Shown: in pieces, positions 19,280-44,060 of the stretch
Numbering within the stretch: position 1 is the stretch's first letter
Layout of the letters: the number at the start of each line of letters is the position of its first letter
Virus record (IMG/VR): IMGVR_UViG_3300025093_000011
Span: 49,199 to 113,198 of that record
DNA: 64,000 nucleotides
Direction: 5' to 3' (one strand)
Source of the DNA: a virus
The notes under the pieces: model-generated
Database searches by the model: none
What the model was told of the DNA's origin: nothing
Seen by the model: the letters and a program-made list of their open reading frames with translations, nothing else
Program-made: the position numbers and the translations under genes

Positions 19280-22200
19280 ATGATAAAGTGTACACTTGGA
19301 CAACCACAATTTGATTGGCTTTACGGTTCTACTAAAGCTGCAATAAAAGCTGAATTAGATAATGGTAAGTCTTTTAATGTTAGTTCATATATGGATTTCT
19401 TATATGAAAGAATTAAAAAGGCTGAAGATGCTGATAGAGCTGCTCAATTTTTAGCAGTTACTCCTGATATATTAGACCTTGTTATATCTAGAAATTATGC
19501 AGATAATATTGATAATATAACTGGAGTAGAGCAGTTAACTAAGTTAAGAGCTAAGTTCTCTAATCCTGAAAGTAACATTGATAATGTAATTGAATTTTTT
19601 GAAAAAGATAATAAAGTTAATTTAGAAATAAATAAACAAAATAAAATCAATACTAAAGGAGCTACAGTAAATAAAGTTGATACTAAATATAAATCAGGTG
19701 GTCCAAGACTTTTAGCTAATACAATTTTATCTGCAACTTTTCCTGAGTATAAATCTGAAGGAGGAAAGTTTGATCCAGAAACTATTAATCCTGAAAGAAA
19801 TCTTATAAATAAAACATTAAGTAAGATAGCTGAGTCAATTGATTTACAAAGTTCTCTTTTGCAGTTTCCTGAATATCAAGGTAAGAAGATTGCACTTAGA
19901 GCAGTTAACATGTCTAGTTTTACTTATGGTGGTACAGCAGAAGGTAGAACTAACTTTAGTAAATTAGATTCTACTACACAAGATGAGATCATGAGATCTA
20001 GAAAATTATCTAGTGCTGCTATAGCTAAATCTGATGTGACTCAAGTTAACAAAAGAGCTTTAATTGTAGTCATTGATGCAGAGACTGGTAAACCTTTGTC
20101 ATTTAATTTTAATGGAGATATTGTTGATTCTAAAGATATAAATGGAAAATATGTTTTTCAGTTTATGAGAGACATACAAAAAGTTGGAAATACTTATACT
20201 GTAAAAGATATTTATGGTATAGAAGATAGAGTTGATACATCAAACGTTGACCAAAAAGACCTTGAAGATGCTTATAAGTTAAAACAAAAAGCTTTAAGAG
20301 GTGATGGTGTAGTTCTAAACTTTTTAGGAATGACAGAAGGTGTAGATTCACAACTTACTAAAAAAGAGTTTAGTCTTAAAGAGCTTATGGATCAAGGACA
20401 GATAAAGGAAAAAGACTTAAGTACTTTAAAAGTTTTACCTAAAGATTCTTTTGGTTTTAAAGCTGGATCAACTGTTATAAAAATTAACGGTACTTATTAT
20501 AAGTTAAAAGGAAATAGAGTAACACCTGTAGTAGATCAAATTATAGATGTGCTCTTTTCTAAAAAGGTTGGAAGAAAACAGAAGATTGAATTCTATTCTC
20601 AGTTTATTCCGGAAAATAATAAACATAGATTAACTTATACAGCAAGGAGACATGTTATAACACCACTGAAAAACGGTAGAATAGCAATACAAATATTTGA
20701 TAAAGTTGCTAAAACAGAAGAAGGTTGGCCGACTGTTGATGGTAAAACAGAAGGTTTAACACATACTTTCTTTATTGCTGAAAACGGAGATGTAATTGAT
20801 AAAACTCCTATGGGTGAAGTTGTAGTTACTAATCCTGAATCAGTAGAAGAACTAAAAAATATATTTAGAGATGCATTAAATAATGCTTATGCTCCACCAA
20901 AAGGAGGTGCTAGTTTTATGCATTATGATACAGATCTTATAGAGAGACCTAATGACTTTTTAGAATATAGAGATGGAAAATTCCCATCTAGAAACTATAT
21001 AGATTTTTTAATGTCTCAACCTTCTATAGTAGAAATACAAGCTTCACAAAAAGGTTTCTTTAATAAGCAAATACTATTTGAAGAATCAAATAAAGAAGTT
21101 AAAAAGGAAGATCCTAATGCAGATCTTATGGGTCCTAAAAGAACTTTAAGTGCAGAAGAATTAGCATTGATTGACCTTTCTGAAAATTTAGAAAAGTATA
21201 GAAAACTTTTACCAAAACAAACTACAGAAAACTATGCTGTTCTTTCATATATTTTAGATCAAGTAACTGGAAATAGATATAGTGAACAACTTGCTAGAGA
21301 TGTATTTGATCTTTATAATGGGCCTTTACAAAATACTTTTACTAGTGCACAAGTAAAAGAATTTAATAGAAAGTTAAATAGTTTATTCCCACCTATTACA
21401 CCTGAGCAAAATAAAAAAGATATTGAAGATAATCAGGATGATATAAGTGGTCAAACATCTTTAGATCTTGATTTAGATAGATCTGGAAACTTAACTTCAG
21501 ATACTATTTCAAAAGAAGATTTAAAGAATGCAAATGACTTTTGGAAGAATAGTAAATTAGGTAAAAAGTTAAGTAAATATATTGAGCTTAACCGTGCTGC
21601 AAATATTGCAAACTCTGATGCATATGCAAAGTTCATTATTGATGGAGCACAATTATTAAATCCAGATGTCTTAGGTAGAATAGACATAAATAAAGCTAAG
21701 GGAACTTTAGTAGATGTGTATCATGAAGCTTTTCATGGATTTACACAGCTGTTTTTATCTAAACAAGAAAAGATTGATTTATATAATGCTGTTTTAAATT
21801 ATAAAGATAAGTCTGGAAGAAAGCCTTATGAAAATATGAGTGAGTTAGAAATTGAAGAATTTCTTGCAGAAGACTTCAGAACTTACATGAAAGGTAACTA
21901 TAAAAGAAAAAGCACTTTAATAAATAGAATTTTTAGAAGAATCTTAAATATTTTAAAAGCTATATTTGGTGTAAAAAGTAAACCAGTTGTATCTAGCTTA
22001 AAGGTTGATGCAATGGCTATACCTGCTGTAAATGAACTTTATACAAAACTTAATTTTTCTGAAAAGTATCCTGGCTTTTTAAATAAGTATAAAGCTAGTA
22101 TAGATAATGTTATGTTTTATCAACTAGACCGTGGTGTTACTGCTGTTGATAAATTAAAGAATGAAAAATATAGAAGAACTGTATTATCTAAACAAGATTC

Positions 22201-25200
22201 TGACTTTATGTCTAGTAATATAGATTCTATCATATCAGAAGAAATTGATAAGTTTTACGATGTTAAAGTTGGTAAGTCAACAAATTCAGAATTAATTGCT
22301 AAATATAAAGGAGCTAATATATCTGCTTTATTAAAACCAGGAAATAGAGCACAGATTTATAAAGAAGTTTTAAAAAGATTAAAAGACACTTTAGCTGAGT
22401 TGACTGATAAACATTCTACTAGTGAAAACACTATAAGTAAAATAGAAGATTTTGAAGGAATAGAAACTGCTGCCGTTGCAACCTTAGTAGTAAATGAAGA
22501 CGACTCTACTAAAGATCCTAATAAATATTTTTTCTTAAGTTCTCAAATTGATTCATTTGATAATCTAACTCCTAATATGAAAAGAGGAGATAGAATTAAA
22601 GGTGAAACTTGGCAAGGTGTTAAAATAGTAGGTGATTACTATGTGCATAATACTATTAAAGATGGTAGCAATAGAAAAGCAGAAATAATTGTAATATCTG
22701 AATTAGAAGATGCTGAAATTCAATTTGATAATTATATAAAAGCTGGTGCAAAAAAATATGAGAGAGTAGATGTTAAAGAAGCTACAGAGCCTGAATTAAC
22801 AATTGAAGATGAGAATGTTTTAAATAACATGCGTCTTTTAGAAACCTCAATAAAAAACTTTGGTGATCCTTTCTATGAATCAAAAGGTGGTAAACCCACA
22901 GGTCTTATTAAATATCATTTACAAAATTCAGATTTTGAATTTGGTAAAGTTAAGTATGTTGTTGAGGAAGAAGTAAATGAAAAAGGAGATGAATTAGGAG
23001 AATCAGACTCACCAGTATCTGAAGGTCTTGAAAGTATGGATCCTGAATATTATGATAATAAAAAGTCATTATATGATTTAGCAGATAGTGAAGTTATTTA
23101 TCTACTAAAAGGATTATTTAAAGTTGATTCTAATGGAAAGCCTATAAAGAATTCTTTAGGATTTAATGAAAGAGAAGACTTTAGAAGTACTTGGAACTTG
23201 GTTTCTAAAAGTATTGGAGGTATTCAAGATAGACAAAAAGCATTTGATATTTTAAAAGAAGAAGCAGAATTATTTCCTGCTTTAAAACAATTAGTTGATT
23301 ATAAACTGCCAGGCCCAGAAGGTATTAAGAATACTTATGCATTTGATATTAGCTCATCTTTTTGGCATACATTTGCTAGACCATCTGCAAAGTTTTGGCA
23401 AGTATCAGTTATAGAGGGTGAACCTGTACTACAAGAATCTTCTCCAGCAGCAGCTAAAGTATTAACTAATTTTAAAAGTTACTTTAAAAGCTTTCCTAAT
23501 CCTTATGTTAAAGATCAAACTTTAAACTTAGAGAAGCTTGTTAAGTCTTTTAGCAATAACAATGGAGAGATTAACTCTAAAGATTTTAAAAGTTTTTTAA
23601 ATGCTTTAGGTATTATTCTTGACAATACTAAAAAAATTAATACTGCAATAGATAACTCTGATGTTCAAATAAATAAATTATTTGATTTAGTTAAAGACAT
23701 AGAAACTATTTCGCAAAAAGAAACTTTAAGTAAGAATGAAAAAATACTAGTAAGTAGATTTACACAAGATCCTATTACTACATTACAAACTTTAGAATGG
23801 AGTAAATTTATGTATTTACTTCCTAGTTTTAAAACAGTTCAGATATTAGCACCAGTATCAACTATTAATTTATTTGCTAATTTGCAGTCTAAGTATGGAT
23901 TTGATTCTCCTGTAGAAAATATAATTCTTCCTGATGGCAATAAAGCTTTTGCTGTTACAAATCATAGTTCAGTTAGTTCTATGGTAGATGGTATAAATAA
24001 TTTAGATGAATTAGATAATGCTTGGGCAGATACTAATTCACATATGTCTTTTCTAGATCCTTCTAAAAACTTCTTTACAAATAGGTCAAAACTAATAGCA
24101 TCTATTTTTGATCCAGTTACCGGTAAAAAAATTAAAGGTAGAGAATTAAACTTTTTAGCTTTTGCAGGTTTAGAAGTGGTTGATGAAATGGTTGCTCAGG
24201 GAATTAATACTCCAGATCTAGTTCCTATAGATAAATTTTACTTAGCATATAATACAATGATGCAAAAAGGAATTGGTGAGTTTATTAGACATGCTGAGAA
24301 AAGAATGGCTTTTGGTATAGCACCAAATGAAAAAAGTCAAGTGATTTTAGATAATGGTTTAAAGTCCGGGACAGATGGTCTATGGATTTCTAAAGATTTA
24401 TTTCAAAATGAATTAGAAGTTAGTGAAGGTGAGTTAATGGCTATTGAAGGTTACTTACTAGATTATATAGGTGTTGAGTTTGATAGAATTAGTTTCTTTA
24501 AAAAGAATCCAGAAGTATTGAAAAATACAATAGGATTTAATAGAGATGTAAGAGGTACTAAAGCTGGTTTAACTTTTGGTTTAACAGATGATCTTTTAAC
24601 TAAAGATATTAAAAAGACTTTAACTGGATTAGCTGAAACTTTAGATGAGAATGAAGACATTGTTGAATACATAAAAGCAGATTCTAAACTTTATGATGAA
24701 ATTTCAAAAAGCATCACAAATTATTTTAATCAAGTAGCAGAAGAAACTTATAAAAACTATGTAAGTAAAATAAAATCTATACCTCAAGACATGGTTTCAG
24801 TAAAAGCTTTTGTCTATAATGATTACATTAATAAGTTTGAAATGTTTAATCTAATACATGGTGATGCTGTTCAGTTTAATCATAGTAAAGAACAAGCTAC
24901 TAAACGTGCACCAGGTTCTACATCTAATGGAGATAGCTTTGTTTATGATGAGTATGCACAAGACTTTATTAATCAGGTGTTTCAGGGAGAAAATGTTAAC
25001 ACATATGCTAAAGAGCTTAGTAAAGAACTAGATGATGAAACTATACAAGACTTTAACTTTGATGGTACTCTTAATACAGGAGTTATAAAAGACCCTAAAA
25101 GAAAGACTGTATATATGGATGAACTAGTTGAGGGTTGGACAGAAGCTTATGAAAAAGCAGGACTGACTCCACAGGAAATAAAATACAGACTTGAAAAAGA

Positions 25201-28200
25201 TCGTGATCCATATGAAGGAATTGAAGAAGCTGATGGAGCTGCATTTGCAACGTTAGATGCATACAGGATGCTTAAAAAATTAGGAGGTCCAAATGAATGG
25301 ACTAGTGAACAAGAAAACTTATATCAGCAAGTAATTAAAGGTGAAGATACTGATCCATTAAAAGTAAAGGAAGCATTTCCGGTTTATAAACTGCATTATT
25401 ATGGTCCCTTAATGAACAGTGAAATTAATACAACTCTTATGTATAAATTTGCTGTTGCACCTATCATACCTACAATTGCTAAATCAGATACAGAATTGTA
25501 TAAATTGCAGAAGTACATGATTGAAAATAATTTTCAAATGATTACAATGAGTACTGGTTCAAAAGTATCTACTTTAACAATGAATGGTGAATTTGATGAT
25601 ATATATCTACCTTCTGATAATGATTATTTTAAAGATAAATATATTAATCCAAATGCTAAATTAGCAAATAATAAGATTCATATTAGATATTTAAAAAATG
25701 TTACTAAGGTAGCATCTAAATTAAAAAAGACTATAACTAAACCAACTCAAGAAAGAATAATGACCATTAGTGGTTTATTCAAAGAAGGTGAAATTAATGA
25801 TAAACATAGAGAATTTTATAATGAATATAAGAATGCTGTTGATGCTTTAACAGATGCCTATGAACAAGAATTTTTAGATGAGATTGGTTATGAATTTAAA
25901 GATGGTAAATATGTCGGTAAGCTAGATAACTTAATAAGAGTTATAAGAGATGAGCTTGAATTAAAAGATGTACCTGTACAATTACGAGCTGCACTAGATG
26001 TAGATCTTAATGAACAACTTAGTAAAGATTTTTCATTACATCCTGAAGCAGGGTTAGTTGAAAAAATTGTAATTAATAGAATAGCAAAAGCACTTGTAAG
26101 ACAAAAAGTAAAAGGAGAAAAAGACATACAAGTTCCAAGTACTTTTTATAATGGACTATGGAGTTCTGAATATGAACAGGATCCAAAGATTATTAATGAT
26201 CCTAAAGAAATAAAAAAGTTTTTAGGTAGTAATAATTTACCTAGTTATAGAAGAGGTGATATATTAAAAGGTAAAAACGGTAAGATATTAAAAGATAAAG
26301 ATGGATATCCTCTAAGAGAAAAAACAAAGTTAGCTAAAATTGCTGTTTCTATTAACCATGGTGATTTTATTAATTTATTAAACCTTGAATACAAAGGTAA
26401 AAAGATTGGAACAAGACAAAACTTAAATAAACTTATAAAAGATGATAAGTTTTTAGAAGAGCATGGTGATAAAGTTAGAATAACAGGACCTAGGATTCCT
26501 GTAGATGATTTGAATCTAAAGGATGGTTTTGAAGTGTGGCACTTTTTAGATGCTTCTTCTGCTAATACTGTAGTAGTTCCTACAGAAATTGTTGCAAAAG
26601 AAGGTTCTGACTTTGATGTTGATGCATTATTTTTATCTTTCCCTACTATAAATAAAGATGGATCTTTTCCAATTAAAGTTGACTTTAAGAAAGAGTATGC
26701 AAAACTAAAGGCAGAAAATAAAAGTACTAAAGCATTAATTGAAAACCAAATAGGTTATGCTCAAAATGAATTAATTAGAACTGAGCTAAATATATTAACA
26801 TTAGCAGACAACTATGCAAATCTTACAAAACCAAATGCAACTTATCTAATATCTGATGAAGCTGAAGGTTTTTATAAAGAGTATGCTCAAGAGTTTGATC
26901 CTTTAGCTAATAAGAATACTACAGAAAGATATGTTAGTCCTACAACAGTAACTAATATTAATTATGATGTTAATAAGTTTGCTCAGTTATTAGGAGGTGC
27001 TAAACCTTTAGGGATGCTTGCTAAGAAAAAGAAACAACATGTTCTATATAAATATGCAGGTATGGCAATGCCTGGACAAATTCTTATTGATGATGATGTT
27101 TCATATAATTATGTACCTAACTTTAAGTTTGAATATCAAAAAACATCTGATGGTAGAATATCTTTTTCTCACGAGAATTCTGTAACAAATCAAGATATTT
27201 CAACTACATTTTCTCATAGCTTTCAAGGAGTTCTTGATAGAGGAAATAACCCATTCCCTGCATATGTGAACTTTACAAAAGATTCACTTCCTGTATTTAA
27301 TAGAATGTTAGAATCAGGAATAGATAAAAGCATTGCTTTAGCACTTATAAACCAACCAATAATTAAAAGGTTTCTTAATGATTTAAATGAAACTAAAGGT
27401 ATAGTGGCTGTATTAAATGGTCAGCAAAGCACTAAAGGTGAAGTTTTAGAAAACATTTTATTAGGTCTTTCAGATAATTTAAGAGCTATTGTATATAATG
27501 CAGTGGATGTTGCTAATGAAAACAGACTTGATAAAATATTAGATAGCAATGAGGTATCTGCACTAGATGGTAAGTTTTCTGTAAAATATCTTGATGGTTA
27601 CACTGAACAAACCGAATGGAAAACTTATAAAACTCTAAAGGGTTTAAAAACTTTCATTAAGAAAAATTCAGATAATAGTTATGAACTTGTTATTAATGAA
27701 AGTAAACTAGGAAATAAAACTAGAGTTTATCAAGAAAAAGGTTTAAGATTTTTTGCTTGGTCACCTAATGAGTTGGCAGATGTTTTATGGAAAGATTCAT
27801 ATGGTAGTAATGCTCCTACTGTAGAAGAGTTACAAAATAATATTTCTAAACTTGAACCAATTGCTTCTCAAAAATATTTGATGGATCAAGCTGCTTTATT
27901 ACTTTACTTTTTACAAATTCAAAACTTGTCTTCAGATTTTGAACAGTTTGAAATTGACTTTAATCCAGATACTAGTATTTTAGATACTATGGCTTCATTA
28001 GATATTTATGAAAGAAATTTAAATAGATTACTGAAGGATCCTTTTAGTAAATTAGATACAGCTGGTGCTAATAGATTAATGAAAGAGTCAGTTTTATCTT
28101 CAATGAATAAGTATGAGATTTATAAAGATATAGTAATTCCTTTATTTCCATTAAGATTAAATTCTAGAATAAACTTCTTCTTAGTAAATTCTCTTTTGGA

Positions 28201-30868
28201 TAAAAAATTTAAGAAAAGAGTTACTGATGTATATGGTACAAGAAAAGAAGATGTAGATAGATTTATTTCAAACTTTAATAATGCTATAGTAGATTACATT
28301 TATCAAAATACAATGTCAGGAATGCCTGATACTGTAGGATTACCTCAAACTATTCCTAATGAAAATCCTTATAACCTACCTGTTGAGTCTGCAGAATTAA
28401 GTTATGAAAAACCTGTTGAATTTACAGATAGTAAAATTAAAGTAGACTTTAAAAAGATTGATGCAATTTTTAAAACTAAAAGATATCTATCAAATAATAA
28501 AAGCAGTACATCTTTTGCTGAATTAGGTTTGGATACATTTAAACAGAATGAAGATCCTTTTACAAATAAAGATTCTTTTGTAAAATATTTAATTGAGAAA
28601 GAATCTTTGTATAATCAATATGATGTAAAGGATTTTAAAAATAAAACTGAATATGAACAATTTATTTCTAAAAGAGCTTTATTAAATAACTTTAATCATA
28701 AATACATAATGGGTAGAACTAAGTATTCTTATACTCAAGATGTTGTAAAGATGATACAGTCTAATAAATTACTTATGGAAAGATATCCTGTATTAAAACA
28801 ATTGAATAGTTCATTCTTTATGAAAGGTGTTGGATATAATCTATTAGAATTAAGAGATAAAGGTATAATTGATTCAAGTACTTCAAACTTATACAGCAAA
28901 CAGTTAACTCAACTTGGAGATGTGACAGTTAAGAAAGTAAAAGATAAAGCTAAAAATAAAGAGATTAGTGATATATTTAAAAACTTTTTCTTAATAACCC
29001 TATATCAGCATGGTATTGGAAGAGGTATTATAAACTTTCCACAGATACAGAATCCAGAAACTTTTATGGAAATTATGAGTAATACTACTAATTCTTTCTT
29101 AAATAAGACTCTTGAATCTAAAGGTAGTGGTGAGATTTTCAACTTTATTACCAATAGACTTTTAGCTCCTAATGTTTATAAGAACTATGTTCAAAGTGCT
29201 AATGCATTTAATGGTACAAATATAGAAACTGACTCAATTCCTACAGAGGATTCTCAGTTACAAAAGTTAGAAGAAGATATTACACTCATAGAGTTTGGTA
29301 TTTCTATAGGGGCTGCTACTGAAGCTGAGTTAAATGCAGCTAGGGAAAGACTTAATAAGTATTTGGATCAAAATAAACCTAAACGTCCTAATAACTTAAA
29401 TGTTAAAAAAGGTAGTGGAGTTAAAATTATATCTGAACCTTATGGAGTGGCAGTTATTGAAACAAATCCAACAAAAACATTACAGTCTAAGTTTTTAGAT
29501 CTTATTAAACCTCAAATAAAAGCTCAAGCTATAAAAGAGAATAAAGGTAGAAATGCTAACTTGATGTTCCAATTTGGATTAAGATGGGCTAGAGTAGAAC
29601 TTTCTGCTCAACCTTTAGAAATTAATTCTCCATCATATGATTCTAATGCTAGAAAGAAAGAGATTGCAGCACTAGAAAAATCTAATAAAGATAAAACTGA
29701 TAAGTTTGTGTATGCATATCATCAACTAGATCAGAATGGAACTCTATTACCGGAACTATCAGAACTACAACCTATAATAGATGATATACAAAAATCTTTA
29801 GGAATAGATATGTCTAATTATGATGCAATGATTGGTAACATATATTTACCAGGACAAGCTGTAGCTACACATAAAGATGTTACTGAAAGTAAATCTGCAG
29901 AAAATTATCCTGTAATAGTATATACACTTGGTGCAGGAAATGCAATAAACATTTATGAAAATGTTAAAGATCCAGGTAAAGCATCATTCGCATCTGATAA
30001 AAAAGTTACTATACCAACTAAAGCAGGTACTATATATACATTTGGTTTAGAAGGAAAAGGTAGATTTGAATTAGCACATGATACACCAAGAGCTATACAG
30101 AAAGGTGAAGCATTAGAACCTATCACTCTTCCTGATGGTAAAGTAGTAAAAGATTATACTATTACACTTACTTTTAGAAGAGCAGCTGATTTAGATCCAG
30201 GAATGCCTAAGACACCTAAATCATTAATATCTACTCCAACTGAAGAAGTTGAAGAAGTAGATATACAACCTATTGATATATCATCTAATAGTAGAGGTCT
30301 TGGAGGTGCTCTTACTAACCCTACAGAATTATCTAAATCAAAAGGTAATATTGCTATGTCATATCCTGTTGAAGTTAGAGGTAAAAAATATCAAGATGCT
30401 GAGGCAGCATACCAAGCTTTAAAAGATAAAAAAGAGAGTACTACTAAACCTTCTAAAGATAAAAGTAGTAACTTTGCATTGATGACAGAAATATTAACTA
30501 ATAAACTAGATACTTATCCAAATCTATTTTCAGAGATTCAAAACAGAGGAGGTCTAGCATTTCTTAATGTATCAGTTCATCAACCTACTAATAAGAACAC
30601 TGTATGGGAAAGTGGAGGTCAGAATTGGTTTATAGAATCTTTGGCTGAAGCCTTTGTTGCAACTCAAGCAACATATAACTTGCAATCTATACAAGGTAGT
30701 TTATTTATTGATCCTTCAATATCTAATTATTATAATAGCTTAAGTAAGAAAGAAAAAGAAGATCTTGAATTAAGATATGGAAATGAACAGTTTGCTCAAG
30801 CTCAATGGGATAGTGCTCCTGCAAGTTTCACAATGGAACAATTTATTGAAATATTAAAATGTAAGTAA
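19280..30868 (+). CDS. Virion-packaged DNA-dependent RNA polymerase (crAss-like, double-psi beta-barrel type) with zincin, AlkB-like and NADAR-like domains
   Basis: 3862 aa. RIP...GSDFDVD catalytic motif (DFDVD at 26609-26623), comparable to DFDID of phi14:2 gp66. Also ADGAAF, HEAFH zincin, HKD...H...LTFR and YQDAEAAYQALK. Confidence 0.88.
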   Translation: MIKCTLGQPQFDWLYGSTKAAIKAELDNGKSFNVSSYMDFLYERIKKAEDADRAAQFLAVTPDILDLVISRNYADNIDNITGVEQLTKLRAKFSNPESNIDNVIEFFEKDNKVNLEINKQNKINTKGATVNKVDTKYKSGGPRLLANTILSATFPEYKSEGGKFDPETINPERNLINKTLSKIAESIDLQSSLLQFPEYQGKKIALRAVNMSSFTYGGTAEGRTNFSKLDSTTQDEIMRSRKLSSAAIAKSDVTQVNKRALIVVIDAETGKPLSFNFNGDIVDSKDINGKYVFQFMRDIQKVGNTYTVKDIYGIEDRVDTSNVDQKDLEDAYKLKQKALRGDGVVLNFLGMTEGVDSQLTKKEFSLKELMDQGQIKEKDLSTLKVLPKDSFGFKAGSTVIKINGTYYKLKGNRVTPVVDQIIDVLFSKKVGRKQKIEFYSQFIPENNKHRLTYTARRHVITPLKNGRIAIQIFDKVAKTEEGWPTVDGKTEGLTHTFFIAENGDVIDKTPMGEVVVTNPESVEELKNIFRDALNNAYAPPKGGASFMHYDTDLIERPNDFLEYRDGKFPSRNYIDFLMSQPSIVEIQASQKGFFNKQILFEESNKEVKKEDPNADLMGPKRTLSAEELALIDLSENLEKYRKLLPKQTTENYAVLSYILDQVTGNRYSEQLARDVFDLYNGPLQNTFTSAQVKEFNRKLNSLFPPITPEQNKKDIEDNQDDISGQTSLDLDLDRSGNLTSDTISKEDLKNANDFWKNSKLGKKLSKYIELNRAANIANSDAYAKFIIDGAQLLNPDVLGRIDINKAKGTLVDVYHEAFHGFTQLFLSKQEKIDLYNAVLNYKDKSGRKPYENMSELEIEEFLAEDFRTYMKGNYKRKSTLINRIFRRILNILKAIFGVKSKPVVSSLKVDAMAIPAVNELYTKLNFSEKYPGFLNKYKASIDNVMFYQLDRGVTAVDKLKNEKYRRTVLSKQDSDFMSSNIDSIISEEIDKFYDVKVGKSTNSELIAKYKGANISALLKPGNRAQIYKEVLKRLKDTLAELTDKHSTSENTISKIEDFEGIETAAVATLVVNEDDSTKDPNKYFFLSSQIDSFDNLTPNMKRGDRIKGETWQGVKIVGDYYVHNTIKDGSNRKAEIIVISELEDAEIQFDNYIKAGAKKYERVDVKEATEPELTIEDENVLNNMRLLETSIKNFGDPFYESKGGKPTGLIKYHLQNSDFEFGKVKYVVEEEVNEKGDELGESDSPVSEGLESMDPEYYDNKKSLYDLADSEVIYLLKGLFKVDSNGKPIKNSLGFNEREDFRSTWNLVSKSIGGIQDRQKAFDILKEEAELFPALKQLVDYKLPGPEGIKNTYAFDISSSFWHTFARPSAKFWQVSVIEGEPVLQESSPAAAKVLTNFKSYFKSFPNPYVKDQTLNLEKLVKSFSNNNGEINSKDFKSFLNALGIILDNTKKINTAIDNSDVQINKLFDLVKDIETISQKETLSKNEKILVSRFTQDPITTLQTLEWSKFMYLLPSFKTVQILAPVSTINLFANLQSKYGFDSPVENIILPDGNKAFAVTNHSSVSSMVDGINNLDELDNAWADTNSHMSFLDPSKNFFTNRSKLIASIFDPVTGKKIKGRELNFLAFAGLEVVDEMVAQGINTPDLVPIDKFYLAYNTMMQKGIGEFIRHAEKRMAFGIAPNEKSQVILDNGLKSGTDGLWISKDLFQNELEVSEGELMAIEGYLLDYIGVEFDRISFFKKNPEVLKNTIGFNRDVRGTKAGLTFGLTDDLLTKDIKKTLTGLAETLDENEDIVEYIKADSKLYDEISKSITNYFNQVAEETYKNYVSKIKSIPQDMVSVKAFVYNDYINKFEMFNLIHGDAVQFNHSKEQATKRAPGSTSNGDSFVYDEYAQDFINQVFQGENVNTYAKELSKELDDETIQDFNFDGTLNTGVIKDPKRKTVYMDELVEGWTEAYEKAGLTPQEIKYRLEKDRDPYEGIEEADGAAFATLDAYRMLKKLGGPNEWTSEQENLYQQVIKGEDTDPLKVKEAFPVYKLHYYGPLMNSEINTTLMYKFAVAPIIPTIAKSDTELYKLQKYMIENNFQMITMSTGSKVSTLTMNGEFDDIYLPSDNDYFKDKYINPNAKLANNKIHIRYLKNVTKVASKLKKTITKPTQERIMTISGLFKEGEINDKHREFYNEYKNAVDALTDAYEQEFLDEIGYEFKDGKYVGKLDNLIRVIRDELELKDVPVQLRAALDVDLNEQLSKDFSLHPEAGLVEKIVINRIAKALVRQKVKGEKDIQVPSTFYNGLWSSEYEQDPKIINDPKEIKKFLGSNNLPSYRRGDILKGKNGKILKDKDGYPLREKTKLAKIAVSINHGDFINLLNLEYKGKKIGTRQNLNKLIKDDKFLEEHGDKVRITGPRIPVDDLNLKDGFEVWHFLDASSANTVVVPTEIVAKEGSDFDVDALFLSFPTINKDGSFPIKVDFKKEYAKLKAENKSTKALIENQIGYAQNELIRTELNILTLADNYANLTKPNATYLISDEAEGFYKEYAQEFDPLANKNTTERYVSPTTVTNINYDVNKFAQLLGGAKPLGMLAKKKKQHVLYKYAGMAMPGQILIDDDVSYNYVPNFKFEYQKTSDGRISFSHENSVTNQDISTTFSHSFQGVLDRGNNPFPAYVNFTKDSLPVFNRMLESGIDKSIALALINQPIIKRFLNDLNETKGIVAVLNGQQSTKGEVLENILLGLSDNLRAIVYNAVDVANENRLDKILDSNEVSALDGKFSVKYLDGYTEQTEWKTYKTLKGLKTFIKKNSDNSYELVINESKLGNKTRVYQEKGLRFFAWSPNELADVLWKDSYGSNAPTVEELQNNISKLEPIASQKYLMDQAALLLYFLQIQNLSSDFEQFEIDFNPDTSILDTMASLDIYERNLNRLLKDPFSKLDTAGANRLMKESVLSSMNKYEIYKDIVIPLFPLRLNSRINFFLVNSLLDKKFKKRVTDVYGTRKEDVDRFISNFNNAIVDYIYQNTMSGMPDTVGLPQTIPNENPYNLPVESAELSYEKPVEFTDSKIKVDFKKIDAIFKTKRYLSNNKSSTSFAELGLDTFKQNEDPFTNKDSFVKYLIEKESLYNQYDVKDFKNKTEYEQFISKRALLNNFNHKYIMGRTKYSYTQDVVKMIQSNKLLMERYPVLKQLNSSFFMKGVGYNLLELRDKGIIDSSTSNLYSKQLTQLGDVTVKKVKDKAKNKEISDIFKNFFLITLYQHGIGRGIINFPQIQNPETFMEIMSNTTNSFLNKTLESKGSGEIFNFITNRLLAPNVYKNYVQSANAFNGTNIETDSIPTEDSQLQKLEEDITLIEFGISIGAATEAELNAARERLNKYLDQNKPKRPNNLNVKKGSGVKIISEPYGVAVIETNPTKTLQSKFLDLIKPQIKAQAIKENKGRNANLMFQFGLRWARVELSAQPLEINSPSYDSNARKKEIAALEKSNKDKTDKFVYAYHQLDQNGTLLPELSELQPIIDDIQKSLGIDMSNYDAMIGNIYLPGQAVATHKDVTESKSAENYPVIVYTLGAGNAINIYENVKDPGKASFASDKKVTIPTKAGTIYTFGLEGKGRFELAHDTPRAIQKGEALEPITLPDGKVVKDYTITLTFRRAADLDPGMPKTPKSLISTPTEEVEEVDIQPIDISSNSRGLGGALTNPTELSKSKGNIAMSYPVEVRGKKYQDAEAAYQALKDKKESTTKPSKDKSSNFALMTEILTNKLDTYPNLFSEIQNRGGLAFLNVSVHQPTNKNTVWESGGQNWFIESLAEAFVATQATYNLQSIQGSLFIDPSISNYYNSLSKKEKEDLELRYGNEQFAQAQWDSAPASFTMEQFIEILKCK

Positions 30869-31740
30869 TGGCTTGTATAAATAAATCAAATAAAACATAT
30901 CAAAATATAGAGAAACGTTATGGTGTATTCTTAGCTGAAGTCTATACAAGAAGTCATCCTAAGAATCTTTCTATGAAAGCTAATGATGATTTTTATATTC
31001 CTTCATTAAGTGAGGTATCTAAAATTGTTAAAGCTGAAGGTATTGATACTATAGAAAACTTTGATGCAAATATGAAACAAAATCCTTATATGACTGAAGA
31101 GTTTATAAGGGATTCATTAAAAGGAGTTATTAGAAAGCATAGAGGTGAATACTATGTAATTAAAGGTATAGATGTAGGACCTTTGCAAACAGCAATCTCT
31201 ATAAAAGAAATCTTTGAAAAAAATTATAGAGTAATGAATACTCTACAATCAAAGTATCCTCAAATAATATCTTTAAGACAAGGACGTAAGCCAAGAAGTT
31301 TTAAAGTTATTATAACTCCTCAGCAAAAACCTGAAGAGGTTGAAGAAAGAACTATAGAACCTAGCTTAAGAGCATATGCTAGATTAGTAGAGCTTAATGA
31401 TGGAGCACAACCCAAGATGTTTCAGAGTGGTCCGCATAGATGGCAAAGAGTCGGAAATAATCTATATACTCTTATAGATGAAGACACTGGAGCTGTGTTT
31501 ATGCCAAATGTTAATTTAGTAACAGGGATGCAAGAAGTTGAATCAAATACAACTCCTGTAAATCCTGAATATAAAAAGTATGTACTAAACCAAGTTAAAC
31601 CACTTAATACATCAGCTATGCAAGTATACTTAGCTGAAAGGGGTTATAATATGAATTTAATTATAAAAAACTTAGAATCTGCAGAAACTCAAGAAGAACT
31701 TCTTAGAGTATATAAAGATTTTGTTAAAACTGTATGTTGA
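30868..31740 (+). CDS. Hypothetical protein of the ejected-protein cluster
   Basis: 290 aa, TAATG-coupled to the RNAP stop. Cys only at residues 3 and 290. Confidence 0.75.
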   Translation: MACINKSNKTYQNIEKRYGVFLAEVYTRSHPKNLSMKANDDFYIPSLSEVSKIVKAEGIDTIENFDANMKQNPYMTEEFIRDSLKGVIRKHRGEYYVIKGIDVGPLQTAISIKEIFEKNYRVMNTLQSKYPQIISLRQGRKPRSFKVIITPQQKPEEVEERTIEPSLRAYARLVELNDGAQPKMFQSGPHRWQRVGNNLYTLIDEDTGAVFMPNVNLVTGMQEVESNTTPVNPEYKKYVLNQVKPLNTSAMQVYLAERGYNMNLIIKNLESAETQEELLRVYKDFVKTVC

Positions 31741-31741
31741 T

Positions 31742-34700
31742 ATGGCAACTTGTCCTAATAAAAATAGTAAAGAATGGAAAGAGATTCTTTCAGAAGCACA
31801 AAACAATGAACAAATTGCAATGGATCTTTGGATTAAAAAAGGATTCAATCAGCAAGAGGATTTAAACGAAGATGCTAAAGAGGGAGATCTAACTAATGAG
31901 GAAATAGAAGCACTGCAAGAGCTTGATCCTATGCAAAGATTAGCTCAAAAGACTAAAGTATATCTTCAAAAAAGAATTAATATTCTTTCAAATCAGAAAG
32001 TTAAAGACGTAGATAGAAAAACAAATAGGCTCAAAGAACTTTTACAAAACATGAAAGCTGTAGAGGAAGTTGAGTCAATAAATCTATTTATCGAAGAAGC
32101 ATATAAAATGTCTCAACAGTTAAAGCAAAGAACAAAACAATTTTTGATTGATGTAAAGAAAGAGGATGTTGATAGAAAAGAACTTATAGAAGCTTTAACT
32201 AATATAAACGAGTATGCAAACAGTTATAATATATTAGATGAGATATCTAGTGAAGATCTTTTTGATTTCTTTCAGTTAGACGAAGACGCTGAACAAAAAA
32301 TGTTTGAAGAAGATGAAGAAGGGAATGTGAAATTAAGTATGAAAGAAAAACTAGAAAGAGCAGTAACTACTAGAAATATCATACGACAAAGAATGCTGGA
32401 TGAAGGCATACCTTTATTAGCAGAGTTTTTATTAGATGCAAGATCAAAATACAGTGCTGAAGGTTTAGAAAAAGAAATTGCAGCAAAACGAGCAGAGATT
32501 GAAAAAATAAAGAATGATGTAACTAATGAAAAAAGAAGAGATAGACTTATTCAAAAAGTAGAAAGACAAATAGATCTTTTAAGCACGAAGGCTCAAGATA
32601 AAGATGGTATGATTAAGATACTAAAAGAAGCTGCTATAGAAGAAGGAGTCTTAGACTTTTTAGTAGGGCCATTAATTAGTTCACCTGATAGTGCTGTTGC
32701 ATTATTTGCTAAAGCAATTAAAGATCAGTTAGAGTTTGCTAGATTAAAAGATATTAATATTAAAAGAGAATTGACTGACGAATATTTAGAATACAGAAGT
32801 CAAGCTCCGGGATCAACTGACAATCCTCAAAAATTTAATGAAGGTTTATATACTGTAGTAGAAGTACCTGTATATGAAACGGTGCAATCAAAAAAGAATC
32901 CTAACTATTATTATAAGACGGTTAAGAAAGATGAGGCTGGTAATATAGTATATAAGAAAGAGGTACACTTTGTTGAAAGAATAGATAGAAAGAAATTTAA
33001 AGCTGCACAAGCCCAATGGTGGGCTGAAAACCCTAAGCCGCATGCAGATAAAATACCTGAGCAATTAACATCATCAGAAAAACAAGATGTTAGAAATTGG
33101 GAAAATAAAAAGAAGCAATGGTATAAAGAAAACATGACAGAGAAATCTGCAGAAGCTATTAAAGCTATTGATGATAAGATGAAGAATGAAAGAGATGCAG
33201 AAATCATTAGTAAAAAACAATACGCAAACTGGTTTAACAATGAAAGGTTTAAAGAGATACAAGAACCTTCTTCAAAGTATATAAGTGAGAAGTGGTTAGC
33301 AATGTATAACAAAGATGGTAAGCCTAAGAATGCAATGGGAGAATATCACAAAGCACTTACCGATACTTACTACGGTGCTCAAGAGTTATTACCTGAATCA
33401 CAACGAACAGGTTCTAGAATACCATCTATTCCTAAGAAAGATTTAGAAAGGTTATTAGATGAAGGAATTAGTAATCTAGTAAAGACTAACATTAAAGAAA
33501 CTATTTCTATACAAGCTTATGATACAGAATACGGTGGCAACATTGCAACTTTGGGAGGGGAAGCTGTGAAGTTCTTACCTATATTCTTTACACAAAATAT
33601 TGATGAATCAGATATAAGCTATGATTTATTAAGTTCTGTTTTATTATTTAGTCAAATGGCAAATAAGTATGACGCACTGAATGAAGTTAATGGTGAGATA
33701 TCTTTAATGAAACAAGTTATATCTAAAAGAGCTAATCCGAAATTTGATGAGGTATCTGGTAAGAAACAATTTGATGTAGTGGCTAAGAGATTTGGCCTTG
33801 AAGAATTTATTGTTAAGAGTGGAGAAAGTTTTACTAAAAAACATTTAGATGCATTTATTGATATGATTGTATATGGAGAGATGCAAAAGAAAGAAGTTCT
33901 CTTGGGTTTACAGTTTGATAAAATAACTAACACAATAACCGGATTTTCTGCACTAACATCTATTGCAGCTGATTTACTTAAAGGTGTGGCTAATAACTTA
34001 CAAGGTAATATACAATTAATTATAGAAGCATCGGGAGCAGAATTCTTTAGTGCTGCTGACTTAGCAAAATCTAAAGTTCAGTTCATGGAGAATGTTGCGG
34101 GAACATTAGGAGACTTTGGTAAACCTAGTCCTACAAGTTGGATGGGTAGACTTAATGAGTTATATGACCCTATACAAGGAGACTTTACTGATAAGTATGG
34201 AAGAATTGTTTCTGCAAGTGTAGCAAATAAACTATTTAGAACTAATACATTATTCTTTAATCAGTACTTTGGGGAATATGAAATACAAGTTTCAGGAATG
34301 CTAGCATTAATGAATGCTACAGAAGTTAGAGATAAGGAGAATGGTACTAATATAACTATGTATGAAGCACATAAGAAATATGGTCCTGATTCAGGTGATT
34401 TAAATGGGAAAGTTGAGTGGATTACTCAGGATAAAGATGGGAATAATGTTTATGAGGATTTTAATGAAAAGCATAGGAGATCTTTTCAAGATAGAGTTCA
34501 TGCATTAAGTAAAAAAATGCATGGTATATACAATACCTTTGATAAAGGTACTGCACAAAAGCAATCTTTGGGCCGTCTAGCTTTGATGTATAGAAAGCAT
34601 ATGTATCCTGGATTTAAAAGAAGATGGAAACAGTATTCTTGGGATGAGGAACTTGGTTCAGGGACTGAGGGTCACTATAGAACCTTTTGGAATACTTTTG

Positions 34701-35203
34701 TTAGAGATTTAAGAACTTATAAATTAAATGTTGCAAAAGAATGGAGTACATATACTCCTATGCAAAAAGCAAATATCAGAAGAACTCTTTCTGAGATAGG
34801 TGTGTTCTTAACAATTGTAGGTTTGATAGGTATTCTTTCAGCTATGGCTTCTGATGATGGAGAGGATAAAGAAAAGTATAAAGACAATTATCTTTATAAC
34901 TTTCTTCTGTATGAAATGGTTAGGATGAGATCAGAGACAGCTCAGTATATTTCTCCTAAAGATATGTGGAGAACTATAAAATCACCTTCTGCAGCTTTAA
35001 GTACCTTAAGTAGATTCATAAGATTTACAAATCAGATACTACCTTGGAATATTACAGAAGAGTATAAAAGAAAGTCAGGTATTTGGGAGAAAGGAGATAA
35101 CAAAGCATGGGCATACTTTATTAAATTAATTGGTCTTCCTGGTTATAATATTAAACCACAAGATGCAGTTAAAGTTTATGAGAACTTATCTAGAGCAATT
35201 TAA
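31742..35203 (+). CDS. Large ejected protein with a C-terminal transmembrane segment (last gene of the RNAP cluster)
   Basis: ATG at 31742 (MATCPNKN, 1153 aa), 1 nt after the upstream TGA, is preferred over the TTG at 31721. Hydrophobic stretch IGVFLTIVGLIGILSAMAS. Confidence 0.78.
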   Translation: MATCPNKNSKEWKEILSEAQNNEQIAMDLWIKKGFNQQEDLNEDAKEGDLTNEEIEALQELDPMQRLAQKTKVYLQKRINILSNQKVKDVDRKTNRLKELLQNMKAVEEVESINLFIEEAYKMSQQLKQRTKQFLIDVKKEDVDRKELIEALTNINEYANSYNILDEISSEDLFDFFQLDEDAEQKMFEEDEEGNVKLSMKEKLERAVTTRNIIRQRMLDEGIPLLAEFLLDARSKYSAEGLEKEIAAKRAEIEKIKNDVTNEKRRDRLIQKVERQIDLLSTKAQDKDGMIKILKEAAIEEGVLDFLVGPLISSPDSAVALFAKAIKDQLEFARLKDINIKRELTDEYLEYRSQAPGSTDNPQKFNEGLYTVVEVPVYETVQSKKNPNYYYKTVKKDEAGNIVYKKEVHFVERIDRKKFKAAQAQWWAENPKPHADKIPEQLTSSEKQDVRNWENKKKQWYKENMTEKSAEAIKAIDDKMKNERDAEIISKKQYANWFNNERFKEIQEPSSKYISEKWLAMYNKDGKPKNAMGEYHKALTDTYYGAQELLPESQRTGSRIPSIPKKDLERLLDEGISNLVKTNIKETISIQAYDTEYGGNIATLGGEAVKFLPIFFTQNIDESDISYDLLSSVLLFSQMANKYDALNEVNGEISLMKQVISKRANPKFDEVSGKKQFDVVAKRFGLEEFIVKSGESFTKKHLDAFIDMIVYGEMQKKEVLLGLQFDKITNTITGFSALTSIAADLLKGVANNLQGNIQLIIEASGAEFFSAADLAKSKVQFMENVAGTLGDFGKPSPTSWMGRLNELYDPIQGDFTDKYGRIVSASVANKLFRTNTLFFNQYFGEYEIQVSGMLALMNATEVRDKENGTNITMYEAHKKYGPDSGDLNGKVEWITQDKDGNNVYEDFNEKHRRSFQDRVHALSKKMHGIYNTFDKGTAQKQSLGRLALMYRKHMYPGFKRRWKQYSWDEELGSGTEGHYRTFWNTFVRDLRTYKLNVAKEWSTYTPMQKANIRRTLSEIGVFLTIVGLIGILSAMASDDGEDKEKYKDNYLYNFLLYEMVRMRSETAQYISPKDMWRTIKSPSAALSTLSRFIRFTNQILPWNITEEYKRKSGIWEKGDNKAWAYFIKLIGLPGYNIKPQDAVKVYENLSRAI

Positions 35204-35836: not shown

Positions 35837-36982
35837 CTAAAATAGATCAGGTAAGTCACCCTCTTCCACTTCAGTATCTTCATCAGAACTCTCAGTATTA
35901 GATACACTAAAGTCTAAATCAAAATCAGCATCTTCTGTAATATCCGTTACAGATTCTTCAGCTATTTGCTTATCTACGATTACTTGACCTTTAATTAATT
36001 CATCTAACTCTTTGAGTTCTTCATCTTCTTGATGCTCTGGACATGAATTCATATCATCAGAGCCCAGGGGTGGGCTTGATGGTTCATCACATACTTCTGC
36101 CACTGCAGCTTCATCTTCTGCTATCTGCTCTTCAATTGTAAGTTCAGGAGTAGTTTCAACTTCTGTAGATTCGGTAACAGTTGTTTCCTCTTCAGCCTCA
36201 ACCTCTGCAATCATATCTTCTAGATCTACTTGATTAGGATCTACTTCAGGCTCTACCTCTTCTGCTTTATCAAATTTAAAAGCATCAGATATAAACCAAT
36301 GAAGAACTCTTTGATCCTCCATCCAAGTTTTAGGATGTGACTGTTGTAAAGCTAGAGTAACATGATTATAAAATGCCCATAAGCTATCAGGATTTCCATA
36401 CTTAAAACTAGGTCTAGACATTTGTTGTCTGATGATGCTAGCTTGTTCAGTAGTTAGAATCTCATGTTCAGCAAACAGGATACCAAGTAACTGAGCTTGT
36501 TGTCTTTTACTAATATGAATTTCCTTCATACTTTCTTTATCTTTAACAAGCTGCTTATAATACATATTAGCATCTTTGATTTGCTCTTTAATGGTCTCTT
36601 CAGTTTCTGTATCTGCAGTACCTGTGTGTTTACGGGCCCAAGAACCCATGTCTCCACAAACCATACTACTACCAGTTTGATTTATGTAAGCTCCAATACC
36701 ACACTTAAACCTCATCTGTTTGTTATAACTGTTAGACCAGGCAAACATCATGGACAACTCAGGGTCATCCATAAACGTTAATCTATATACTCCTTGTGCT
36801 ATATTTCCATTTCCTGTACATCTATAATGCTCTTGATTAACTTTAAATCCGGCATTCTCTAGACATTCAATTGATAGATCTACAACTGACTTATGACTGA
36901 TTACAGTATAAGTACTTGTCTGATTTGGTAAAGCAACATCAAACAGATGCTGCTTTGTACATTCTTTAATTTTTGTTGGCAT
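35837..36982 (-). CDS. DUF932-like protein with a long acidic C-terminal tail
   Basis: TYTVISH...WSNSYNK..RFKCGIG...RKHTG...SLWAFYNHVT pattern; the last ~140 aa are E/D-rich. Confidence 0.6.
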   Translation of the reverse strand: MPTKIKECTKQHLFDVALPNQTSTYTVISHKSVVDLSIECLENAGFKVNQEHYRCTGNGNIAQGVYRLTFMDDPELSMMFAWSNSYNKQMRFKCGIGAYINQTGSSMVCGDMGSWARKHTGTADTETEETIKEQIKDANMYYKQLVKDKESMKEIHISKRQQAQLLGILFAEHEILTTEQASIIRQQMSRPSFKYGNPDSLWAFYNHVTLALQQSHPKTWMEDQRVLHWFISDAFKFDKAEEVEPEVDPNQVDLEDMIAEVEAEEETTVTESTEVETTPELTIEEQIAEDEAAVAEVCDEPSSPPLGSDDMNSCPEHQEDEELKELDELIKGQVIVDKQIAEESVTDITEDADFDLDFSVSNTESSDEDTEVEEGDLPDLF

Positions 36983-36984
36983 AA

Positions 36985-38967: not shown

Positions 38968-38973
38968 ATTTTA

Positions 38974-39312
38974 TTATTTATAAAGTTGTAGTTCTCTTAA
39001 CCTACGTTTTACGGGAATCTTTAAATGTGAATCTACAAAAGACTGCTTACTTAACCATTCTAAGTATTGTTCATCTTTACAGTTTCTTATTAAAGAACCT
39101 TTATGTTTTCCAAAAGGAAATCTTCTAACTTTAAATGTACGAGTTTCTTTTACAGTAGAATATCTGAATCTATATTTTTTATTATTAAAATTTAGTTCAA
39201 TATTCTTTTCTGCACTCTCTTTAATTTTAGATGCAGGTATATTAAGAACTTCTCCCGCTAACTTCATTGATTCAAAGTTTTGCCGGGAGTAGACATCATA
39301 TACAGCTATCAT
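38974..39312 (-). CDS. Small protein: NUMOD1-like N-terminus plus FPFGKHKG domain (DUF3820/ExoX C-terminal-like)
   Basis: FESMKLAGEVLNI; FPFGKHKG...YLEWL. Confidence 0.55.
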   Translation of the reverse strand: MIAVYDVYSRQNFESMKLAGEVLNIPASKIKESAEKNIELNFNNKKYRFRYSTVKETRTFKVRRFPFGKHKGSLIRNCKDEQYLEWLSKQSFVDSHLKIPVKRRLRELQLYK

Positions 39313-39695
39313 ACTTTTTCAACAACTGCAGCTACTGAGGGTTTATCTTTTTTACTTTCTAAAAAACTTTTAAGACTAAACTTTTTAGCATTCACAGCAA
39401 AGATGTTTACAATTTCTTTTATAGAGTCTGCATCTTCAATGTAGTACTCTTGAAAAGTTTCAATTGATGTTCTTTGTTGTTTAGCTCCTCTATTACCGCT
39501 GATAGCTTTTCCATACTCATCTAGTTTAGGTAACATATGTAATGCAGTTTTAACTGTCTTACCTATAATTACAAAAACTTTTGATGTTGGATCAAATATA
39601 CATTCTACATATGGACAATCATTACTGATAGGTACCATTTTAAAAGTTTGTGTTTCTTGCCAGGTTGATTTAACCAGGATCATTGAATTTTCCAT
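39309..39695 (-). CDS. Hypothetical protein
   Basis: Likely start MENSMILV at 39695 after an A-rich leader. Confidence 0.65.
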   Translation of the reverse strand: MENSMILVKSTWQETQTFKMVPISNDCPYVECIFDPTSKVFVIIGKTVKTALHMLPKLDEYGKAISGNRGAKQQRTSIETFQEYYIEDADSIKEIVNIFAVNAKKFSLKSFLESKKDKPSVAAVVEKV

Positions 39696-39778
39696 GTTGA
39701 TTTTTTTTATAAAATTAATCAATAATTTTGATATTATCTAAATTAGCTACCTCCATTACTAACTTTTCTTTCTCAAGG

Positions 39779-40282
39779 TCAGGTTTGGCTACAGAGTTCA
39801 CCTACAGATTCTATCATTTTTACGTCTACATTTAAACAGTTTGCATAGTCTTCAAAGTACTTTTCTGGATACAAATAACTTTTCATATATACATAGTTAC
39901 CTGTATGAGGATTAAAGAAGCTCATGATATCTCCTTTTACTTTTGTACTAATCATACTATACTTACCATCTAAAAACAATTGCCAATCATATTCTAAATC
40001 AGAAAAATCAAACACAAAAATTCTATTTGATTTGTCAACCATTATACAATCATGTAACCGGTTATGTTTGAGTAATATATTCTTCTCAAACTTTTTATAC
40101 TCAACATCTTCTCTTGGATGATATAAACATACTAGCTTCATATCATTAGGAGAAACTGAATCATTCCAAGCAAGATAAGTCTCACTTGGAATAACACTTG
40201 TACCTCTTTTAATTCCAAGGAGTGGGTACAAGAACACCTTAGATTTTTGAAAATATTTCTTATATACTGATTTTATTCCCAT
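39779..40282 (-). CDS. Hypothetical protein; probably extends to 39715 across a 1-nt frameshift
   Basis: 167-aa ORF. The adjacent frame continues KPDLEKEKLVMEV...IID* and fills the gap to the next gene. Confidence 0.65.
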   Translation of the reverse strand: MGIKSVYKKYFQKSKVFLYPLLGIKRGTSVIPSETYLAWNDSVSPNDMKLVCLYHPREDVEYKKFEKNILLKHNRLHDCIMVDKSNRIFVFDFSDLEYDWQLFLDGKYSMISTKVKGDIMSFFNPHTGNYVYMKSYLYPEKYFEDYANCLNVDVKMIESVGELCSQT

Positions 40283-40286
40283 GTTT

Positions 40287-42780: not shown

Positions 42781-42795
42781 TTTTAATAGTTGGTT

Positions 42796-44050: not shown

Positions 44051-44060
44051 CTTTTTTAAT

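Follow-up and report, generated by a model that had tools for sequence, protein, structure and literature searches.

Carrier gene and polymerase core

The window analysed here is a 64,000-nucleotide (nt) stretch of viral DNA, positions 49,199 to 113,198 of the IMG/VR virus record IMGVR_UViG_3300025093_000011. It contains a very long open reading frame (ORF) that encodes the core of a crAss-like virion RNA polymerase and, closer to its 3′ end, a domain resembling the Fe(II)/2-oxoglutarate (2OG) dioxygenase AlkB. A domain predicted to be NADAR-like directly follows. The source record is a virus genome of 113,198 bp with a G+C content of 30% and a CheckV completeness estimate of 98%. Metagenomes with near-identical DNA came from many studies and were of marine, seawater and sponge origin; no RNA runs were found among the sequencing runs listed as carrying the DNA of this record. 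The features discussed below are given in Table 1 in window coordinates.

Table 1. Features of the window, with predicted roles and the evidence for each.
Feature	Position	Strand	Evidence or remark
Giant crAss-like virion RNA polymerase ORF with accessory C-terminal domains	19280..30868	+	3862 aa, continuous
RNA polymerase core, residues 1928-2455	25061..26644	+	Homologous to Cellulophaga phage phi14:2 gp66
Catalytic DFDVD (D2444, D2446, D2448)	26609-26623	+	Aligned to gp66 DFDID 1361-1365
AlkB-like Fe(II)/2OG dioxygenase domain including N-terminal lid region, residues 3378-3638	29411..30193	+	AlphaFold2, Foldseek, VIA-align, Pfam, hhalign
N3520-x-Y3522, equivalent to AlkB N120/Y122 (predicted 2OG binding)	29837..29845	+	hhalign; 227/227 relatives; codon starts N3520 29837, Y3522 29843
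H3531-K-D3533-V-T3535-E3536; H/D predicted Fe(II) ligands (AlkB H131/D133), T3535 at D135, E3536 at E136	29870..29887	+	hhalign; codon starts H3531 29870, D3533 29876
R3595-FELA-H3600; R equivalent to AlkB R183, H predicted distal Fe(II) His (AlkB H187)	30062..30079	+	Both 227/227 relatives; codon start H3600 30077
Y-T3627-I-T-L-T-F-R3633-R3634; Thr for AlkB R204, R3633 equivalent to AlkB R210	30155..30181	+	hhalign; codon starts T3627 30158, R3633 30176
Predicted NADAR-like domain directly downstream of the AlkB-like domain	30257..30700	+	AlphaFold2, Foldseek, VIA-align; family hidden Markov model (HMM) envelope residues 3644-3813 (30209-30718)
Replication block	35837-50171	-	DUF932, family B DNA polymerase (weak), PD-(D/E)XK nuclease, DUF2201 metallopeptidase/VWA protein, Toprim primase-like, AAA_24, DnaB-like helicase

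The first 3,000 residues of the protein were compared with GenBank phages by tblastn. Only crAss-like phages were matched, among them phi14:2 with g066 (‘Catalytic RNA polymerase subunit’); the core matched its product gp66 with an E value of 9e-9. BLASTP of residues 1600-2800 against gp66 gave an E value of 3e-15 over about 550 residues, and the end of the alignment set GSDFDVDALF on GSDFDIDKMY, so that DFDVD falls on the catalytic DFDID, in which every Asp is essential for gp66 (bioRxiv 10.1101/2020.03.07.982082). Sequence searches of PDB chains with the whole protein and with the polymerase core gave no match. The motifs that an initial annotation of the window had quoted for the AlkB-like domain were all located in frame 1 of the same ORF, with exactly the translation written there, an agreement well beyond chance. 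The domain and the polymerase core share one polypeptide, and the fusion proposed in that annotation therefore holds.

Some database relatives of the domain are short (250-900 aa) and many of these come from short contigs, as would be expected if the AlkB-like gene were in reality separate and small and the fusion an artefact of chimeric assembly, of a missed stop or of a frameshift. The reading frame is uninterrupted from 19280 to 30868. Positions 27000-31000 were spanned by a single 7,095-nt contig from an independent public run, with two substitutions and zero indels, and were tiled by two further runs; the fusion therefore does not stem from assembly. In addition, the same core is joined to the same domain in no fewer than 82 further giant proteins, which come from other samples. 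The probability of an artefact is considered negligible.

Fold and homology of the AlkB-like domain

A 271-aa piece containing the domain was searched with HMMER against 1.84 billion representative proteins. The 202 relatives retrieved lay nearly all within proteins of 2,000-6,700 aa. The piece was aligned with 33 short relatives (alignment A1), and this alignment was used for AlphaFold2 and hhalign. The model obtained had a predicted local distance difference test (pLDDT) score of 93.3 and a predicted template modelling (TM) score of 0.91. When it was compared with the PDB by Foldseek, E. coli AlkB filled all top ranks (E 6e-11, TM score 0.74-0.78 on the target). VIA-align superposed it on AlkB 3KHC with Z 22.1 and a root-mean-square deviation (rmsd) of 2.5 Å for 199/207 residues, covering AlkB 9-215 and thus the lid; rice ALKBH1 reached Z 21, and human ABH2, ABH3 and ALKBH5 only Z 15-16. 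By hhalign, A1 was aligned to E. coli AlkB (taken from NC_000913.3) with a probability of 92% and an E value of 5e-7.

These comparisons confirmed that residues ~3378-3638 are predicted to adopt the AlkB fold, with a double-stranded beta-helix core, an AlkB-type lid and an intact Fe(II) triad. The clustering of the triad residues follows only from superposition of the model on AlkB at 2.2-2.5 Å. The domain had been assigned to the AlkB-like 2OG-Fe(II) dioxygenases at 29450-30190, an assignment that another fold would have contradicted. It was found at this place and with this identity, the folded domain being slightly longer (~29411-30193).

Sequence profiles gave lower scores. Pfam 2OG-FeII_Oxy_2 (PF13532) matched the domain with an E value of 6e-6 and 26.9 bits, for a gathering cut-off of 31.2 bits, and NCBIfam TIGR00568 scored 13 bits for a cut-off of 231; the AlkB and NADAR rows returned by NCBIfam were insignificant only. 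Searched by sequence, PDB chains gave no match to the domain, and fold and profile comparison alone succeeded. Because the first Arg of the RxxxxxR motif is replaced by Thr, the domain is placed in a divergent AlkB-like subfamily rather than among the canonical AlkB enzymes.

Active-site residues and the Arg-to-Thr clade

In this section domain numbering is used, to which 3369 is added to obtain protein numbering. The hhalign alignment paired the residues of the domain with those of E. coli AlkB as follows: Y109-Y76, Y111-Y78, N151-N120, Y153-Y122, H162-H131, D164-D133, T166-D135, E167-E136, R226-R183, T258-R204, T260-N206 and R264-R210. It set A230 against H187. The invariant H231 was taken as the probable distal His, an assignment that requires R226 and the His to be one residue further apart than in AlkB. 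W67, outside the range of the hhalign alignment, presumably corresponds to AlkB W69.

Conservation was assessed on 227 near-full-length copies of the domain cut from the retrieved proteins, with identities down to ~30%. N151, Y153, H162, D164, E167, R226, H231, T262 and R264 were invariant (227/227), and W67, Y109, Y111, Y257 and R265 were 98-99% conserved. At the R204 position Thr was found in 149 relatives and Arg in 78. The initial annotation was thus right in reading Thr at the first Arg position, and the replacement extends to a clade of 149 sequences. On a maximum-likelihood tree of the domain, the Arg/Thr difference corresponded to a single change, the 149 Thr sequences forming one group whose node was weakly supported. 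Other changes in the Thr clade were N180 to T, N225 to G and an enrichment of basic residues at positions 163, 212, 224 and 239.

The first Arg of the AlkB RxxxxxR motif (R204) binds the C5 carboxylate of 2OG. Its loss could mean that the AlkB fold is altered or inactive here and binds nucleic acid or plays a structural part in the polymerase tail, or that a co-substrate other than 2OG is used; T3627 in place of R204, T3629 in place of N206 and the coupled pocket changes of the clade would agree with this. The equivalents of the Fe(II) triad, N120/Y122, R183 and R210 are invariant in 149/149 Thr-clade members, and sister members of the family retain the Arg. A single Arg-to-Thr change followed by wide diversification under conservation is the pattern usually left by an active enzyme, not by a relic. 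Since the change occurred once on the tree, the clade has diversified and the other catalytic residues were kept, the loss of R204 appears to be an old, fixed trait of a large clade and not a sign of decay. This favours an enzyme that is active and has a rebuilt 2-oxoacid pocket, and an inactive or altered fold is judged unlikely.

K224 (K3593) was considered as a stand-in for the lost Arg. Lys occupies this position in 90% of the Thr clade versus 32% of the other relatives, and the Lys state changed ~25 times on the tree versus one Arg/Thr change; the proposal was not retained beyond an idea.

A hint about the substrate comes from T166 (T3535). The D135 residue of E. coli AlkB touches the flipped base at N6, and the engineered D135S and D135T variants gain activity on 1-methylguanine (m1G) while removal of 1-methyladenine (m1A) and 3-methylcytosine (m3C) is kept (PMC7968990). 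The 227 relatives have Thr at this position in 153 cases (including the protein of the window), Asp in 53 and Ser in 18. By analogy, the natural Thr hints at activity on m1G, which is taken as a lead and not as proof.

The NADAR-like neighbour domain

The domain that follows the AlkB-like domain was modelled by AlphaFold2 with a pLDDT of 94.2. Its best Foldseek match was YbiA (2b3w; E 7e-3). VIA-align gave Z 10.1 for 2b3w (123 residues, rmsd 2.7) and Z 9.7 for 8bau, a NADAR with ADP-ribose, the next row being at 3.4. The domain forms its own sequence family (alignment A2), which has stand-alone members, two of them fused to DUF4326; its invariant motifs include ALTN.T, D.E.AY, RGG, H and W. 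No match was found in Pfam (including PF08719) even at an E value of 10, the NCBIfam NADAR model gave an insignificant E value of 0.075, a local HMM built from the canonical NADARs of relatives did not match the domain of the window, and BLASTP of the C-terminal domain against the canonical NADAR of one relative was not significant. The assignment as NADAR-like is suggested by the predicted fold and by weak atlas leads.

Relatives carry a canonical NADAR (PF08719) at the same place, as in the protein P0034 (AlkB-like domain 3583-3749, NADAR 3791-3911). Among the proteins in hand, the AlkB-like and NADAR or NADAR-like domains were ≤41 residues apart in 35/61 pairs, in either order. In the polymerase-seeded set the two domains co-occurred with an odds ratio of 3.2 (p 0.017), a statistic that ignores phylogeny. 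NADARs strip ADP-ribose from guanine in single-stranded DNA (ssDNA) modified by DarT1 and are used by phages against DarTG1 (PMC11543638, PMC11825919).

Distribution of the domain

The AlkB-like domain was present in 162 giant proteins, 82 of which had a polymerase core detectable by single-sequence search. It usually lies 900-1,900 residues C-terminal of the core, and in several proteins N-terminal of it. The survey of related RNA polymerases suggested in the initial annotation was made on the 119 nearest homologues, which were retrieved with the core only (39-55% identity): 39/119 have the AlkB-like domain, and others carry RNase H, helicase, NADAR, HD/RelA-SpoT or ART-PolyVal instead. Homologues lacking an accessory tail domain stop ~840-1,000 residues past the core, like gp66, and the AlkB-like domain is therefore an optional, appended cassette. 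The modules of related polymerase tails vary and comprise PIF1/AAA_30 helicase, RNase H, ART-PolyVal (PF18760), zeta-toxin/AAA_33 kinase, HD with RelA-SpoT (PF01966, PF13328) and DUF7831. Judging from these architectures, the polymerase is a scaffold on which enzymes are exchanged.

In IMG/VR, 76 loci with the AlkB-like domain were found. A tblastn search of the domain against 50,697 GenBank phage records, up to an E value of 1, gave no match; among these records are crAss-like genomes from the human gut with a match to the polymerase core. AlkB requires O2. An O2-dependent enzyme would fit the finding that the domain occurs in a marine carrier but in none of the crAss-like genomes deposited from the gut, and a link between the oxygen of the habitat and the presence of the domain is predicted.

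Among 185,579 GTDB species genomes, an alignment search found a copy of the Thr clade in two short contigs only (L080, DAHWEW010000112.1, and L081, CANJHO010000116.1; 6.8 and 9 kb), which are binned to Legionellaceae metagenome-assembled genomes; a search of the GTDB genome contigs with the single protein gave no match. These are probably phage contigs binned with the bacterial genomes and could be a lead to the host. The closest relative of the tail (P0004; 59% identity, 2778 aa) is filed under the eukaryotic single-cell assembly eukprot SAG31 and most probably comes from a phage contig that entered this data set by carry-over.

Genomic surroundings

Six more large ORFs lie on the + strand at 1556-19266 and 30868-35203 and encode proteins of 1655, 822, 1080, 2316, 290 and 1160 aa. 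They had no significant Pfam or PHROG match, the only Pfam row being DUF4763 on the 2316-aa ORF (E 0.0035, below the cut-off), and are probably cargo or ejection proteins of no assigned function. The PHROGs search likewise gave no match for the 3862-aa protein, its tail or seven neighbouring + strand proteins. The replication block is found downstream of these genes, on the opposite strand.

Within the 3862-aa protein, HEAFH at residues 815-819 (21722-21736, + strand) is the sole HExxH motif. The segment 601-1200 around it is common to 39 related giant proteins and may, from its sequence, be a zincin-like metallopeptidase module of the polyvalent-protein type. The protein contains exactly two cysteines, residues 4 (19289) and 3861 (30860), each near one terminus.

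Proposed function

The gp66 protein is located in the virion and makes the early transcripts; single-stranded or denatured DNA is an efficient template for it and double-stranded DNA a poor one (bioRxiv 10.1101/2020.03.07.982082). Because this homologue is packed in the virion, transcribes early genes and prefers ssDNA, the AlkB-like cassette probably enters the cell with the genome, attached to the virion polymerase. Packaging and injection in the present phage are suggested by gp66 and by the placement of the gene among giant + strand genes. Once delivered, the domain would oxidatively strip alkyl groups from the Watson-Crick face of m1A and m3C, and probably of m1G too, given the Thr at the D135 position. 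Its targets would be single-stranded template DNA or nascent RNA, and early transcription would thereby be unblocked. With its NADAR-like neighbour, it could form a two-part ‘base-adduct eraser’ tail working on single-stranded nucleic acid.

The adducts m1A and m3C form on single strands and block base pairing. Taken with the preference of gp66-type polymerases for ssDNA, this makes cleaning of the template or transcript the simplest reading. As for the origin of such adducts, methyl halides in seawater are natural bimolecular nucleophilic substitution (SN2) methylating agents. Whether the environment or a host defence supplies the adducts is not separable by sequence, because the chemistry is identical either way. 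A demethylase delivered with the genome and acting on template DNA or nascent RNA, as already suggested in the initial annotation, would fit all the evidence. We consider it rather probable that the domain is an AlkB-type dioxygenase, most likely active, which is carried as an optional cassette of the polymerase, delivered by the virion and used to de-alkylate template or transcript.

The same cassette could instead be an injected enzyme of counter-defence or host takeover, erasing modifications placed by defence systems or toxins on phage ssDNA or RNA, or stripping methyl marks (m1G, m1A, m3C, N6-methyladenine) from host tRNA, rRNA or DNA. This would suit the logic of ‘polyvalent’ injected proteins, the domain being one of many swappable modules (PIF1-type helicase, NADAR, ART-PolyVal, RNase H, zeta-toxin-like kinase, HD/RelA-SpoT), and the Thr at the D135 position recalls the engineered AlkB variants that demethylate m1G in tRNA. 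It is also frequently adjacent to NADAR-type domains, and NADARs reverse DarT1 as a phage counter-defence (PMC11543638, PMC11825919). Mark-resetting has been proposed for the AlkB-like enzymes of jumbo phages by Iyer et al. (PMC7824862). The polyvalent-protein paper, however, mentions neither AlkB, 2OG dioxygenases, NADAR nor crAss-like polymerases (PMC5512222). Loss of m1G37 from host tRNA would hurt translation of the phage as well, and the chemistry, being that of repair, makes the two roles inseparable by sequence alone. No anti-phage system is known to us whose base alkylation AlkB could reverse and, in particular, no defence that methylates phage bases at N1 of adenine or N3 of cytosine. 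Counter-defence or takeover is held to be possible, at a modest probability.

A more specific proposal is that the AlkB-like and NADAR-like domains are a pre-loaded counter-defence cassette, which would clear methyl groups and ADP-ribose inflicted by the host from the single-stranded template in the first minutes of infection. We regard it as doubtful. If true, it would imply an undescribed anti-phage defence that alkylates N1 of adenine, N3 of cytosine or N1 of guanine in phage ssDNA or RNA, and a Thr clade that binds its 2-oxoacid in a manner new among characterised AlkB enzymes.

Several points weigh against the preferred role of the domain as a virion-delivered de-alkylating enzyme. Its PF13532 score is under the gathering threshold. 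With T3627 in place of R204, 2OG must be bound in a way unlike that of any characterised AlkB enzyme, or its binding may be weak. Catalysis, the use of 2OG and the substrate are predictions from sequence and models. The case for packaging and ejection is extrapolated from a homologue whose core is ~26% identical, and delivery would presuppose that the domain is still attached after maturation. The association with NADAR is uncorrected for phylogeny, and the sample was partly retrieved through the AlkB-like domain itself.

Few known viruses are as abundant as the crAss-like phages, whose injected RNA polymerase starts work in the cell before any other phage enzyme. The presence of an AlkB-like domain in a third of the close relatives, often with a NADAR-type domain, suggests that damaged or host-modified bases of the single-stranded template entering the cell hinder phages enough for their removal to be worth its cost. 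These data raise the questions of whether and how an AlkB lacking the canonical 2OG-binding Arg works, whether the natural Thr at the D135 position extends specificity to m1G, and whether any host defence alkylates phage nucleic acid. A natural AlkB of the D135T type could also serve in tRNA and RNA sequencing.

Comparison with known systems

AlkB enzymes, the AlkB domains of plant-virus replicases, the AlkB-like genes of jumbo phages, the crAss-like virion polymerase and the polyvalent-protein concept are known already. No account was found in the searchable literature of the fusion of AlkB to the virion polymerase of crAss-like phages, of an AlkB-NADAR pair in this setting or of a clade of AlkB enzymes devoid of R204; some automatic JGI annotations name such giant proteins ‘AlkB’.

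E. coli AlkB (PDB 3KHC, 3BI3, 2FD8, 3I3Q) and the phage domain resemble each other in the fold of the whole domain, in HxD...H and NxY, in the equivalents of R183 and R210 and in the lid tyrosines. The phage domain differs in being only ~18% identical, in an insertion of ~40 residues between the lid Trp and YxY, in having Thr for each of R204, N206 and D135 and in the spacing of invariant Arg and distal His, which is wider by one residue. It is furthermore part of a 3862-aa polymerase and not stand-alone, and its Pfam and NCBIfam scores stay under the cut-offs. The NADAR/YbiA ADP-ribosyl-guanine hydrolases (PDB 2B3W, 8BAU) share the predicted fold of the neighbouring domain, and canonical NADARs adjoin the AlkB-like domain in relatives, whereas the domain of the window belongs to the distinct family A2, matches neither the Pfam nor the NCBIfam NADAR models and is only predicted to be NADAR-like.

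With phi14:2 gp66 (2180 aa) the protein shares a homologous core with aligned DFDxD, a giant size and a gene placed among giant genes on the strand of the structural block. gp66 lacks both AlkB and NADAR domains. The protein of the window exceeds it by ~1,700 aa, of which ~1,080 precede DFDxD and ~600 follow it.

The plant single-stranded, positive-sense RNA viruses (Flexiviridae and relatives) are similar in that an AlkB domain is fused in frame to a viral polymerase polyprotein, has a patchy distribution and was apparently acquired; their AlkB domains repair m1A and m3C in RNA (PMC2553587, PMC544882). Their replicases, however, are RNA-dependent RNA polymerases of eukaryotic RNA viruses, made after infection, and keep the first Arg of RxxxxxR, whereas the phage domain is borne by a DNA-dependent, presumably two-barrel polymerase that a tailed phage probably packs into its virion beforehand. 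AlkB-like genes also occur sporadically in jumbo phages (PMC7824862).

The polyvalent proteins (Iyer et al. 2017, PMC5512222) are likewise very large, with interchangeable enzyme domains that serve in the first minutes after entry into the host, and relatives of the present protein carry ART-PolyVal, helicase and similar domains. Polyvalent proteins are injected; the protein of the window has a multi-domain, exchangeable architecture and would presumably be injected too. It differs from them in its scaffold, which is an RNA polymerase.

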